The notes under the pieces were generated by a model. That model was not told where the DNA came from. It was given only the letters and a program-made list of their open reading frames with translations, and did not search any database. Made by a program: the position numbers and the translations under genes. Shown here piece by piece: positions 16,204-62,278 of a DNA stretch of 64,000 nucleotides. The stretch's first letter is position 1. Each line of letters opens with the position of its first letter. Origin of the DNA: Octopus vulgaris (taxonomy: Eukaryota); assembly GCA_951406725.2 (NCBI GenBank), contig OX597818.1, forward strand, positions 51,894,001-51,958,000. The letters run 5' to 3'.

Positions 16204-16293
16204 CCTGACGATTGGGGTTGCGTTTTAAGAAATGTTCCTGTAAAACACTGCGTGCTTAACGAACGGCAAAAGAACCTCAAGAAAGACGTGTAG
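16204..16293 (+). ncRNA. Hammerhead ribozyme-like motif (type I), long helix II, slightly degenerate
   Basis: CTGACGA (16205) - TTGGGGTT...AACCTCAA - GAAA (16281) - GACGTGTA, one change from a palindromic ACACGTGT helix III. Helix I is weak. Confidence 0.6.
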
Positions 16294-16502
16294 CAGAAAA
16301 ATTTAGAAATGAGTTGTAAGCATTAAAATAAAATTCTTTTATATAGTGTGATGACGGGGACTGCTATCTCTAAATAACACACACACACACACACACATAT
16401 ACATACATACATACATACATACATACATACATACATACATACATACATACATACATACATACATACATACTTACATACATACATACATACATATATAAAC
16501 AT

Positions 16503-16936
16503 AATCAAATAGGGTAATAAAATAAATTATTATTACCAGTGGCCTAGCACAAAAGACGAATTAGTCATTAGACTATATATTTTTCGTATAGAAATATAAT
16601 AAAAGGCTTCCAAATAAGGAAGCGTAGTGTTAGAACCACAAAAAGGGATAAATTCATGAAAGGAAAGAAAATTAAAAACATTTACCATCTCAGCTATATC
16701 CCAGACCGAAAGGTTTCTACCTATTTTTAGCCTTCGTAAGGATTACGAAGGCTTCCCACTGAAGAACCTGGCCTGGCAAATATATTCTGTGTGTTTGCTA
16801 AAAAAGAGGTAGAAACCGTTCGGTCTGGGATATAGCTGAGATGGTAAATGTTTTTAATTTTCTTTCCTTTCATGAATTTATCCCTTTTTGTGGTTCTAAC
16901 ACTACGCTTCCTTATTTGAAAGTCTTTTATTATATT
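16503..16936. mobile_element. Fold-back Penelope-like/retrozyme insertion between microsatellites
   Basis: ~135-bp inverted arms (16592-16730 / 16798-16936). The left arm has a ~90-nt extra tail, and a hammerhead spans the spacer and right arm. Confidence 0.75.
16754..16830 (+). ncRNA. Type I hammerhead ribozyme
   Basis: TCCCA-CTGAAGA-ACCT[hairpin insert]AGGT-A-GAAA-CCG TT CGGT-C-TGGGA. All three helices pair; predicted cleavage after GUC at 16825. Confidence 0.8.
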
Positions 16937-17519
16937 ACATATATATATATATATATATATATAGATAGATAGATAGATAGATAGATAGATAGATAGATAG
17001 ATAGATAGATAGATAGATAGATGAATGAATAATAGTAGATGAGTGTACTGATACACTCATCTACTAATATTAGTGTCTGTACACTCATCTACTATCATTC
17101 ATTTATCTCTCTCTACATATATATCTGTTTACGTATATATTTGCTGATCTCATTAGTTTAATTGTACCTCTTAAACACATGTTTGGTATCATTCAATAAA
17201 TAGACATAATGGAGTGTTTACTGACTGATGTTTATCAATTTTATATCCTCTCCATTTTCTTATTTGCCTTATAAGTCCTGGGTAAATTTCCAACTTACCC
17301 CCACCCATACCTAGTATTCAATTGCAATATTGCCATGCAATAGTAAGCACTTGGTTAAAAATACGTAGGTACATATCCAATGGTATATTGGATATTTAAT
17401 ATCCCTTAGATGGTTTATTAACCTGTAACTCATACAGACATATATGCATATATATATATATTTGTGTGTGTGTGTGTATATATATATATATATATATATA
17501 TATATATATATATATATAA

Positions 17520-17902
17520 TCAATAATAATAAAGGGTAAAATTAATTAATCAATTAATAATTAATAATTTTACCAAATATTTCAGTATGTTAAAAGAACC
17601 ATTATCGGTAAACTTATATAAAAATTCTATAATTAAGAGCATAATTATAATTAGGGTTCAGCAAAATATGCTTCACCATATACCGAAATTTAGAAATAGC
17701 AGTTAAAATACTATTCTCACTACCATAAGATATCTCCAAGACAGCAATACTCAACAACTCACGCAAGTAAAGAGAAAAAAAATAACGAATCCACCCGGCT
17801 CTGATTAACTGTATACGCGTTTCAGGGTTAGAGAGATGTAAAAAATGTAAAATCATATTTCTACTGTACTGACGAAGGGAATGTGTTGCTGTAAATTTCA
17901 AC
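17520..17902. mobile_element. Inverted Penelope-like insertion with hammerhead split across strands
   Basis: Plus strand CTGTA-CTGACGA-AGGG (17864-17879); minus strand CCCT-GAAACGCGTA-TACAG (17827-17809); flanked by (TA)n and (CA)n. Confidence 0.7.
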
Positions 17903-60266: not shown

Positions 60267-60468
60267 GACCGCGTGTGTATCGTTGGCGATTTTCTTTCTC
60301 CGTTTTCTTTTCTTTTGACCTTTCCTTTTTCTATGTTTCTGACGACGAGCTCAGCTCGAAACGTTAAATCCTCCTTCTTTCTTTCCTTTCCTGAGCGTCC
60401 AATAACACTGTATTTGTTCAACGTCGTCGCGTTGTTGTGTTTTCTCTTTGTTCATCTTTGGATTAACT
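60267..60468 (+). mobile_element. Short (TA)n-embedded element with minimal hammerhead (60336-60368)
   Basis: TTT-CTGACGA-C-GAGC tca GCTC-GAAAC GTT-AAA: a loopless palindromic helix III (AACGTT), typical of Penelope-like minimal hammerheads. Confidence 0.65.
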
Positions 60469-61095
60469 ATATATATATATATATAAACACACACACACAC
60501 ACACGCGCGCACACACACACACACACACACACACATACACACACACACACACACACACATATATATATATATATATATATATATATATATATATATATAT
60601 ATATATATATATATATATATATATATATATATATATATATACAGAATTTTCAGGAGCCGGTAAAACCAAGGTATTTAAATAACAAAGGCATCAAGGTAGA
60701 GTCAAGGATAGGATACCTGTGCACTAACAGTGTGTACGGCTACTGACGTACTTACTAAAGTGAGTACGGGTTAGTCCTTTCAGTTATGCATACATTCAAA
60801 AGTACTGACCGAGTACAAAACGTATACATGTGATGTCTCACAGGAGTACATTCCAGCACGTATTTCACGATGGACTTAATAGGTTCAAGATCCAACGCCA
60901 GCATCTCAGTTGTAACCCAGATGGAAAAGTCAATACGCATTTTGTGTGAAAAATTACAAATATTAAATTTTACTTTAAATTCATGTACACGATATGATTC
61001 TTCTCTTTTTCAGTAAAGAAAAGCTGAAATGAACCTCAACCTACACACACACACACACACACATTTATATATATATATATATATATATATATATA

Positions 61096-61322
61096 TATAA
61101 CGGGGACCGGTTTTGGGGGGGTTACGCTGGGTTTCTCGCTCATAAGGGGTTTCACCCTACGGTGTATCTTCAAAACCCAAGCACTACTGGCCTAAAACCT
61201 CTTTAAAAAAAAATTTAAGCGGTCTTAGGCCAGCAGTGTTTGGGGTCTGAGGATACGCCGTGCGGTTAAACGCCTTATGTGCGAGAAACCCAGCGTAACC
61301 CAATAAACCGGCCCCCATTATA
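61096..61322. mobile_element. Hairpin MITE / fold-back element
   Basis: Imperfect ~105-bp inverted arms (GGGTTACGCTGGGTTTCTCGC / GCGAGAAACCCAGCGTAACCC) around an A/T spacer; TA-rich flanks. Confidence 0.8.
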
Positions 61323-62048
61323 ATATTAAACGCTTTACATCTTAGAGTGTGCTTTCACACCGGATACACATACATACATACATACATACATACATACATA
61401 CATACATACATACATACATACATACATACATACATACATACATACATACATACATACATACTCACACACACACACACACACACACACACACACACACACA
61501 TATATATATATATATCCATGCTGACACACTGGCACATATAAACACTTATGTATGTATGTATGCATGTGTAGGTATGTTTTTATTTCATATATATGTACAT
61601 ATTCGTACTAATATAAGCATATAAACACATACAACGATTCCTCGATATACGCACACACACACACACACACATATGTATGTATGCATGTATGTATGCATGT
61701 ATGTATGTATGTATGTATGTATATAATATGAATATATTATAACACACACATCCACGCATGCACACACACACACACACACACATATCAAATGTCACATACC
61801 AGAGGTTTCAAATGAAGATAGAGCACAGTCAACGTTGGTGCCCCAGAATGGCCACAGCTTTGAAGCTGAAACAATTTAAAGATTTAAAGATTTATGTGCC
61901 GCAGCATGGCCGCGGCCTTCGGGCTAAAACATTTTTAAGGATTTTATATATATATATACCTATCTATCTATCTATCTATCTATCTATCTATCTATCTATC
62001 TATCTATATATATATATATATATATATATATATATATATATATATATA

Positions 62049-62278
62049 TTGATAAAACGGTAAGATAACAAAAGAAAGAAAGAGACCTCAATATTATGTA
62101 AATAGAGGAAATTTATCTATACAATATGTTACATTACTCGGTAGTCAAGATAAAACTCTGAGTTTCAGATGCCGAAGTGGAAATCCACAACACCATCTGA
62201 TGGTGTTGTGAATTTCCACTTCGGCATCTGAAACTCAGAGTTTTATCTTGACTACCGAGTAATGTAACATATTGTATA
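62049..62278. mobile_element. Near-perfect palindrome with one-sided tail, carrying the 3' half of a hammerhead
   Basis: 80-bp arms 62118-62197 / 62199-62278 with a 1-nt centre and one mismatch; ~70-nt extra tail on the left; (TA)n on both sides. Confidence 0.8.

Follow-up and report, generated by a model that had tools for sequence, protein, structure and literature searches.

Ten inserts in a 64-kb stretch of the Octopus vulgaris genome (contig OX597818.1, positions 51,894,001 to 51,958,000; hereafter the window) belong to families of short, non-coding repeats with a hammerhead ribozyme motif and with ends on TA-rich microsatellites. The inserts are probably "retrozymes", circular-RNA elements that Penelope-like retrotransposons (PLEs) put into the genome. 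In full, we consider it probable that they are non-autonomous retrozymes for which a PLE supplies, in trans, the reverse transcriptase (RT) and GIY-YIG endonuclease that copy them into DNA and insert them at (TA)n-rich microsatellites. The class itself is already described, as hammerheads of PLE pseudo-LTRs (pLTRs) and as non-LTR retrozymes, and is not a new class of element; what is unusual for an element of a known kind is the clarity of the insertion signature in the window. The core idea of a preliminary description, namely many diverged, hammerhead-bearing, microsatellite-associated elements of PLE type, holds. It is borne out by families with multiple copies, by the shuffle controls and by the autonomous PLEs of this genome, with the amendment that the units are retrozyme-like in at least five families.

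Inserts in the window

The inserts, and one further hammerhead-like site, are as follows (window positions).

15730..16376, plus strand: 5'-truncated copy of family G, ending at the short 3' site; decayed hammerhead core at 16205
16497..16938, both strands: family A fold-back; minus arm 16497-16728 with a tail of about 96 nt, plus arm 16740-16938
17519..17885, minus strand: family E copy with tail; split hammerhead, family monomer of about 600 nt
24575..25257, both strands: family B fold-back; plus arm with hammerhead 24958 and a tail of about 80 nt, minus arm with a mutated core
25800..26259, both strands: family C fold-back; plus arm with complete hammerhead 25990 and a tail of about 95 nt, minus arm short
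32021..32275, plus strand: family D2 copy flanked by (TA)n tracts; minimal-type hammerhead with a CUGUNGA core variant at 32151
41005..41258, plus strand: old family H copy, 5'-truncated within the hammerhead and flanked by (TA)n tracts
50172..50215, plus strand: hammerhead-like core, unconfirmed; single copy, helix I not formed
60266..60467, plus strand: family D1 copy flanked by (TA)n tracts; complete minimal hammerhead at 60339
61100..61362, both strands: fold-back with a decayed hammerhead core at 61247; probable tail of about 55 nt on the plus arm
62050..62274, both strands: family F fold-back; arms identical at 73 of 74 positions, minus arm with a tail of about 72 nt

Among the hammerheads named in the preliminary description, four are complete (16759, 24958, 25990 and 60339) and five are truncated, split or variant members of multi-copy families. 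The family A plus arm holds a complete type I hammerhead at 16754-16829 (site 16759); the motif at 24958 is complete with a 1-nt insertion in helix I, its inverted copy having a mutated core; and the D1 hammerhead at 60339 has a bulged base after A9 and a palindromic helix III. The decayed family G copy keeps at 16205 a core, a long (8-bp) helix II and a palindromic helix III, with a helix I of only about 2 bp. In the family E copy the 3' ribozyme half (17823) lies on the minus strand and the 5' half (17869) was turned to the plus strand by a micro-inversion. Of 26 matches to the family at 32150, 21 are family-like, and about 16 of these share its CUGUNGA core (A6 to U). Only the 3' half of the hammerhead is left at 41008, in an old family of about 70% identity, and likewise at 62230, where the apparent core is the fold-back junction; close relatives of 62230 mostly have a CCGAA(C/G)A core.

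The site at 50177 was not confirmed: it found only itself in the genome (1/1 match), its model E-value was 0.28 and helix I is absent. Neither it nor 15034-15090 (model E-value 0.009) nor 25536 could be confirmed as a family member. Conversely, the fold-back at 61100-61362, which has a relative in locus L074, had been missed from a list whose nine other family members stand. Ten inserts in 64 kb amount to one per 6.4 kb, in agreement with the earlier figure of about one per 6 kb. A complete motif is present in only four of the ten confirmed inserts and several families have non-canonical cores; most genomic copies are dead, truncated or decayed. The extrapolated number of loci with an intact motif is about 60,000 in the 2.8-Gb genome. 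A repeat search of the window was dominated by (TA)n.

The hammerhead motif exceeds shuffled controls

We searched with a descriptor combining the CUGANGA/GAAA/UH core with helices I-III, and used local dinucleotide shuffles as controls. Three window sites matched the strict descriptor (16759, 25990, 60339); 25 shuffles averaged 0.16 matches. Allowing a 1-nt slip in helix I added 24958, giving four matches against a shuffle mean of 0.1 (maximum 2, 20 shuffles), so that the predicted excess over dinucleotide-shuffled sequence was found; a 400-kb sample gave 15 matches and its shuffles 0-1. The earlier claim that helix pairing is kept while primary sequence differs was also borne out. When helix I was not required, it reached at least 4 bp in 12 of 20 real matches and in none of 32 shuffled ones (484 kb), and across 16 aligned motifs, in rows selected by the descriptor, 47 double-sided changes were counted against 17.5 in shuffles, with double changes in 11 of 12 pairs.

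By these features type I hammerheads occur in families A, B, C and D1 and in relatives of E, H and F; they were not found at 50177 or in the copies of G, D2, F, H and J that lie in the window. Rfam at gathering score returned no match in the window or in loci L110, L072 and L147, and an E-value scan had no hammerhead among the 150 of 693 matches listed, where microsatellite-like miRNA models predominated. For no window motif is the hammerhead the minimum-energy fold at a significant z. The core is altered in several abundant subfamilies (A6U in D2; U4C in 17 of 42 D1 motifs; U4C with or without G8C in F), and cleavage may therefore be dispensable. Self-cleavage of the window-family motifs is a prediction from sequence.

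Several families are short head-to-tail units

First-look candidates numbered 1156 for family A, 2457 for B, 2268 for C, 1230 for D1, 2379 for E, 470 for G, 192 for H and 27 for F; these families are multi-copy. Same-strand repeats in natural loci had a period of 436-440 nt in family A (5/20 loci), 492-504 nt in B (3/10), 485-501 nt in C (4/30, with one further at 530) and 465 nt in D1 (1/20, a natural dimer in L051). In family E, with its monomer of about 600 nt, an end-to-start junction was found in two of nine loci. These five families are thus arranged head to tail with one hammerhead per unit of about 440-600 nt, some steps of the B, D1 and E unit paths being supported by a single locus. 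The longest ATG ORF on the unit path is 51 aa in A and 46 aa in B, the two fully traced units. Loci L072 and L110 also consist of short head-to-tail units with one type I hammerhead, in tandem arrays; the L110 unit is 353-359 nt long and has a canonical motif. Monomer GC is 0.34-0.49, below 50%. As predicted circles the monomers fold strongly in A (z -4.4), L072 (z -4.2) and L110 (z -6.0), and the D1 monomer folds no better than shuffles (z -0.75). K-mer cycles of 328 (C), 212 (D1), 208 (F) and 255 nt (G) were rejected as short-cuts through fold-backs. Families B and C are covered by contigs of four sequencing runs, three of which are RNA by guess only; these contigs reveal neither transcription nor a circle and do not weigh for or against either.

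The preliminary description had proposed upstream extension in search of a PLE ORF. At least five families return to their own tail at 440-600 nt; being short cyclic non-coding monomers, they do not reach an ORF. This bears on the reading that no independent short unit exists and that autonomous, ORF-coding PLEs left the inserts as mere 5'-truncated ends of their pLTRs. Animal PLE hammerheads are mostly solo remnants, and opposite-strand pairs 100-700 bp apart have been described (PMC4209133). End-to-start junctions were found at none of 11 tail ends in G, none of 11 in F and none in D2, and family G reaches at least 567 nt upstream of the cut site, so that these three families, as well as H and J, may represent the termini of longer elements. 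Against this stand the closed units of A, B, C, D1 and E, together with the pLTRs of two autonomous families in the genome, which do not match the inserts; we judge this reading unlikely. Five families cyclic at about 440-600 nt, with no ORF longer than about 50 aa in the two traced units, point to non-autonomous retrozyme-like units rather than just truncated ends of coding elements.

Two fixed 3' ends and paired short and long arms

In each family the 3' ends fall on two fixed sites, 70-100 nt apart, on microsatellites. Ends adjoined a microsatellite in 6/6, 3/4 and 15/16 cases in family A, 9/9 in C (short site) and 8/10 and 9/11 in F, against a microsatellite background of 5.5% (400-kb sample) or 11.8% (window). 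On contig C31 three F loci have flanks in common and do not count as independent. Fold-backs pair one short arm with one long, tailed arm in 29 of 29 cases in the window families. A hand count in the L110 family, an unbiased test with the whole monomer as query, gave the same pairing at 20 of 21 loci with two arms, and tandem arrays too carry short and long ends. Tails measure 70-100 nt in the window families and about 45 nt in the L110 family. All four inverted duplications in which, as reported earlier, just one arm has a tail (16497-16938, 24575-25257, 25800-26259 and 62050-62274) were recovered, with tails of about 72-100 nt. It is not the tailed arm alone that touches the microsatellite, as had been proposed; both arms do. 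A CCT plus AT-rich motif precedes most ends, an uncontrolled observation; neither D1 nor the short end of the 781-aa PLE family described below has it.

Family D1 showed no inverted pairs (0/20) and a single end site. Its 5' flank is a microsatellite in 13 of 16 copies, compared with 0/4, 1/4 and 0/9 single-piece copies of A, C and G. Opposite arms of one locus share minority letters 3-10 times above expectation in the window families (23 versus 2.2 in A), which could also stem from later gene conversion. The tailed arm is the shorter one in four of seven family A fold-backs; pure snap-back synthesis cannot yield this and was rejected for family A. Loci L220 and L221 were examined as an empty-site pair and were not clean, and no clean pair was found.

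Inverted arms and TA flanks might suggest DNA transposons of the MITE type, bounded by terminal inverted repeats and targeting TA. However, the 5' ends of the arms vary, many arms stand alone and direct tandems are frequent; the solo arms, together with the asymmetric ends, already largely refute this reading, which we regard as extremely improbable. The inserts might also be SINE-like elements mobilised by a LINE that targets microsatellites, or pLTR-derived satellites amplified locally; this is slightly more probable, yet still very unlikely. LINE fragments are present (an RVT_1 ORF in L065), tandem arrays exist (L110, L072), and local tandem amplification is the model of a 2026 preprint (bioRxiv 10.64898/2026.07.22.740005). 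Yet copies are dispersed over many contigs with fixed internal 3' ends, overlapping head-to-head arms and a tail on one arm, and short and long ends recur even in the arrays. LINE priming occurs at the 3' end of the RNA, and neither it nor unequal crossover predicts fixed internal ends or one-arm tails.

In contrast to the 3' ends, 5' ends are scattered, and only 2 of 171 arms from six families begin at the cleavage site, a count weakened by queries that favoured ribozyme-spanning copies. Their near absence there suggests that the cDNA runs through the cut site. This scarcity fits equally well with the same elements and the same PLE driver but a hammerhead that is an inert relic, the template being an uncut linear multimer and not a circle. 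D1/D2-like copies with altered cores number tens of thousands, minimal PLE hammerheads show poor cleavage in vitro (PMC4209133), and eight of nine Xenopus retrozyme dimers showed none (bioRxiv 10.64898/2026.07.22.740005). On the other hand, compensatory helix changes across about 29 CUGANGA clusters imply selection on the fold, and three of four monomers form stable predicted circles; this reading as a whole is judged improbable.

Autonomous PLEs and a candidate driver

As reported earlier, the window has no RT or GIY-YIG ORF: tblastn with two PLE proteins gave no match at E ≤ 1, and none lies in the traced units. Two families of RT plus GIY-YIG ORFs occur elsewhere in the genome, unrelated to the window families. 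The candidate driver is a young, intact element with a 781-aa ORF that has RT and GIY-YIG domains (Pfam) and occurs in 12 copies that are 96.4-99.7% identical. Its 497-nt pLTR copies are 100% identical in L062, and it has a U3:A8 hammerhead variant, a tail of about 37-40 nt and (TA)n ends. An Atlas search with the ORF upstream of the 781-aa ORF gave one weak unnamed match only.

Attempts to link the window families to GIY-YIG loci, to the 781-aa family or to the second PLE family failed, the matches being neighbouring independent inserts. The expected link by sequence was therefore not borne out, and since no sequence common to the window families and the two autonomous PLEs was found, the driver stays a candidate.

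Proposed mechanism

A tandem source copy would be transcribed and its hammerheads would cut the RNA to monomers, some probably only as dimers. The monomers would then be ligated to circles, which we narrowly favour, the alternative template being an uncut multimer. The PLE endonuclease would nick both strands of a (TA)n tract, and the two DNA ends would prime on one shared template, which has two internal AT-rich sites, each of them used once. Head-to-head joining of the two 5'-truncated cDNAs would complete the insertion, the "tail" being the stretch between the two priming sites.

Comparison with known elements

The families resemble the metazoan non-LTR retrozymes of Cervera and de la Peña 2020 (PMC7229834) and of the preprint by Li, Clavereau and Pollet 2026 in several respects: the units are non-coding, low in GC and arranged head to tail with a single type I hammerhead, the predicted circles are strongly self-paired, and PLEs co-occur. 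L110 is a textbook case. Retrozyme units are about 170-400 nt long (51-972 nt in the preprint) and form arrays, whereas the window families have units of 440-600 nt, often a long helix II, and lie mostly scattered as truncated or fold-back inserts whose fixed ends sit in microsatellites. Inverted arms or tails of retrozymes are not reported in the consulted parts of either source.

Minimal hammerheads of PLE pLTRs (Neptune/Nematis-type; Cervera and de la Peña 2014, PMC4209133) share the A9 bulge and palindromic helix III of D1, and the U3:A8 variant of the 781-aa family. An inverted 5' copy, a one-end tail and a (TA)n bias are PLE traits (PMC8557442, PMC3846280), and the opposite-strand pairs, 5' truncation, one-end tail and microsatellite bias of PLE pLTRs recur here. 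Described PLE tails are 30-40 nt, in contrast to 70-100 nt in the window families. Five of these have no ORF in the unit, and none matches the autonomous PLEs found in sequence. The non-autonomous Chlamys PLEs such as MRC1 are likewise PLE passengers with head-to-tail insertions and microsatellite targets (PMC8557442). However, most Chlamys elements lack canonical hammerheads, which are central in the window families, and the non-autonomous ones resemble their partners at the 3' end, whereas no partner homology was found for the window families.

Mobilisation of retrozymes by PLEs was already proposed (PMC7229834; bioRxiv 10.64898/2026.07.22.740005). The case earlier rested on co-occurrence and pLTR similarity; the retrozyme-like units described here bear the PLE insertion signature itself, and the pairing of short and long arms makes that signature countable. 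More broadly, it is possible, though we hold it only tentatively, that the genome hosts about 10^5 hammerheads in dozens to hundreds of circular-RNA replicon families parasitising active PLEs, and that the strict arm rule reveals how PLEs integrate: both DNA ends would prime on a single circular template, each at its own internal site, and the RNA rather than the endonuclease would fix the length of the tail. PLE retrotransposition lacks a worked-out mechanism and an in vitro system has been called for (PMC8557442); a young intact PLE ORF and young passengers of 350-500 nt in one genome make a compact test system. The findings also point to a large set of ribozyme-bearing repeats that go undetected with Rfam at gathering score.

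Hammerhead motifs in the window

The window (G000:C5:51894001-51958000, from an assembly of 2.8 Gb in 227 contigs) is rich in AT and densely packed with microsatellites. A type I descriptor identified three complete hammerhead motifs in it, whereas 25 local shuffles with the microsatellites left in place averaged 0.16. Once a 1-nt slip was permitted there were four motifs (20 shuffles: mean 0.1, maximum 2). The other sites of the preliminary description are partial or variant copies of repeat families, with the exception of the single-copy 50177. Together with a fold-back that had been overlooked, ten inserts were counted in the 64-kb window, where at least nine had been claimed. 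The hammerhead inserts are real.

Hammerhead-related sites in the window (window coordinates)
16205: family G, decayed copy, helix I of about 2 bp
16759: family A, complete motif
17869/17823: family E, hammerhead split through a micro-inversion
24958: family B, motif found with the 1-nt slip
25990: family C, complete motif
32150: family D2, CUGUNGA core common to the whole family
41008: family H, 3' half only
50177: hammerhead-like candidate, one copy, family membership unconfirmed
60339: family D1, complete motif
61247: core within another, previously overlooked fold-back
62230: family F, 3' half only

Two possible hammerhead-like sites, 15034-15090 (minus strand) and 25536 (plus strand), are strongly decayed, and no family link was found for them. 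Small fold-back palindromes at 17024-17103, which adjoins a microsatellite, and 45021-45142 have no relatives among the sampled DNA of the genome. Open frames at 9087-9527, 12241-12759, 13616-14089 and 15253-15594, which we take to resemble C-terminal fragments of LINE and Tc1/mariner proteins, had no match in a Pfam search. A tblastn search of the window with two PLE proteins of the same genome returned nothing at E≤1, in line with the earlier failure to see an RT or GIY-YIG frame.

Helix conservation and core variants

Helix conservation is more than a product of the descriptor, since helix I, which was left unconstrained, reached at least 4 bp in 12 of 20 distinct matches in 484 kb; of 32 matches in 12 shuffles, 0 did so. 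G10.1-C11.1 was present in 13 of the 20 real matches and one of the 32 shuffled ones. When 16 motifs were aligned without editing, which left some rows misaligned, 47 cells showed changes on both sides, compared with 17.5 in shuffles; helix pairing is thus kept between differing sequences, as first suggested. Rfam at its gathering score gave zero hammerhead matches, and single-sequence folding did not single out the motifs. D2 carries A6U, U4C occurs in 17 of 42 D1-like matches, and F relatives have U4C with or without G8C. Because D1 and D2 outnumber the other families despite these altered cores, the candidate ribozyme is perhaps not essential.

Abundance in the genome

The families are multi-copy, as had been proposed: in searches of the genome each family had between 27 and 2457 first-look candidates, at most 40 of which were scored. 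In a 400-kb sample (forty 10-kb stretches at round-number positions on 27 contigs), 9 loci together had 15 CUGANGA motifs, and the number in 8 shuffles was 0-1. Scaled up to the whole genome, this corresponds to some 63,000 loci, with a Poisson range of roughly 29,000-120,000. The UUGANAA variant was barely over chance (4 against 0-3), and D1-like and D2-like copies gave about 8-10 matches each in these 400 kb. In 1.2 Mb of sampled DNA there were 38 motif clusters at 80%, 29 of them with CUGANGA.

The repeat unit

In natural copies of A, B, C and D1 the tail leads directly back into the element's own upstream part. The period is 436-440 nt in A (5/20 loci), 492-504 nt in B (3/10), 485-501 nt in C (4/30, and another at 530) and 465 nt in D1 (1/20); E has the tail-to-start junction in 2/9 loci and a unit of about 600 nt. 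Upstream extension, which had been suggested as a way to look for a PLE frame, thus returned to the tail in these five families, and the longest ATG ORF on the A and B paths is ≤51 aa. No junction was found in G (0/11 tail ends), F (0/11) or D2. Two unrelated arrays, each between (TA)n, confirm the unit type: L072, with a 494-nt unit, and L110, with a 353-359-nt unit and five direct and two inverted motifs. The latter (L110:2097-4768; 1907 candidates) is a very young canonical retrozyme array with an inverted arm and a tail of ~45 nt. Monomers of A, L072 and L110 are predicted to fold well as circles (z -4.2 to -6.0); no comparable folding was predicted for the natural D1 monomer.

Insertion anatomy

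Each family has two fixed AT-rich 3' end sites, spaced about 96-100 nt in A, 75-80 in B, 95 in C, 97 in E, 72 in F and 84 in G. Most 3' ends adjoin a microsatellite (background 5.5-11.8%), which bears out the reported association. The tail on one arm also held: a short and a long end were paired in 29 of 29 fold-back loci whose outer ends both sit on a microsatellite, a set in which queries were biased to one end type, one long end is partial and three F loci have common flanks. With the whole L110 monomer as query, an end at 190-195 was paired with one at 234-240 in 20 of 21 two-armed loci (the exception being 178/193), by hand count among the matches listed, 12 short matches left out. Just before most short and long end sites lies a motif of CC(C)T and AT-rich sequence, which is also present at the tail end of a 781-aa PLE and is a possible priming signal.

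The 5' ends are scattered and lie ≤6 nt from the cleavage site in only 2 of 171 cases, so cDNA synthesis crosses this site, on a template that has either been re-ligated or never been cut. Rare letters common to opposite arms exceed expectation 3-10 fold, pointing to one template, although gene conversion could account for part of the excess. Simple snap-back synthesis is opposed by family A, in which the tailed arm is the shorter one in 4 of 7 loci. From the end pairing, scattered 5' ends, shared letters and arm lengths, we favour two primings on one template: the two sides of the cut target would each prime once, each at a different one of the two 3' end sites.

Candidate PLE drivers

A GIY-YIG (PF01541) search of the genome gave 6136 candidates. 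Two PLE families were characterized.

L062:768-5453 (G000:C6 near 133.34 Mb) and L059-L070: young autonomous PLE family, (TA)n target, ~37-nt tail
L220-L249 (e.g. L240:4900-5800): second PLE family, abundant, many head-to-head pairs

The first encodes a 781-aa ORF with RVT_1 and GIY-YIG domains and a CX4CX2C linker, which is Neptune/Nematis-like (PMC8557442). A 466-aa ORF upstream overlaps its start and matches no known family. Twelve copies of this PLE are 96.4-99.7% identical, and L062 has identical direct pLTRs of 497 nt. At the end of the element there is a U3:A8 hammerhead variant, and the two end sites, separated by ~37-40 nt, both lie on (TA)n; the 3' region contains tandem TGATGACGT/GATTGG repeats. 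The second, distant family (8209 candidates) also ends on (TA)n. Its long A-rich 3' UTR encloses a (TA)n tract as well as a hammerhead-like core, CTGATGC. No sequence shared between the window families and either PLE family was found, so the case for PLE dependence is one of insertion anatomy.

Comparison with known systems

PMC4209133 describes hammerheads in PLE pLTRs, the U3:A8 variant, the bulged base that follows A9, and pairs on opposite strands. A one-end tail of 30-40 bp, an inverted copy, a preference for (TA)n and non-autonomous Chlamys elements are covered by PMC8557442 and PMC3846280. Non-LTR retrozymes, with PLEs proposed to move them, are treated in PMC7229834 and bioRxiv 10.64898/2026.07.22.740005, the latter preferring local amplification of pLTRs. 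One squid genome paper lists 235 Rfam hammerheads; neither the word ribozyme nor the word hammerhead occurs in the main text of a published octopus repeat annotation. Our literature search found no description of retrozymes with inverted arms and tails, nor of such families in cephalopods, though supplements, Repbase and Dfam may have them. Whereas described PLE tails measure 30-40 bp, and the 781-aa PLE agrees (~37-40), the end sites of the window families are 72-100 nt apart. The inserts work like a PLE-mobilised non-LTR retrozyme, which is a known type; they differ from it in longer units, dispersed fold-backs, long tails and strict end pairing.
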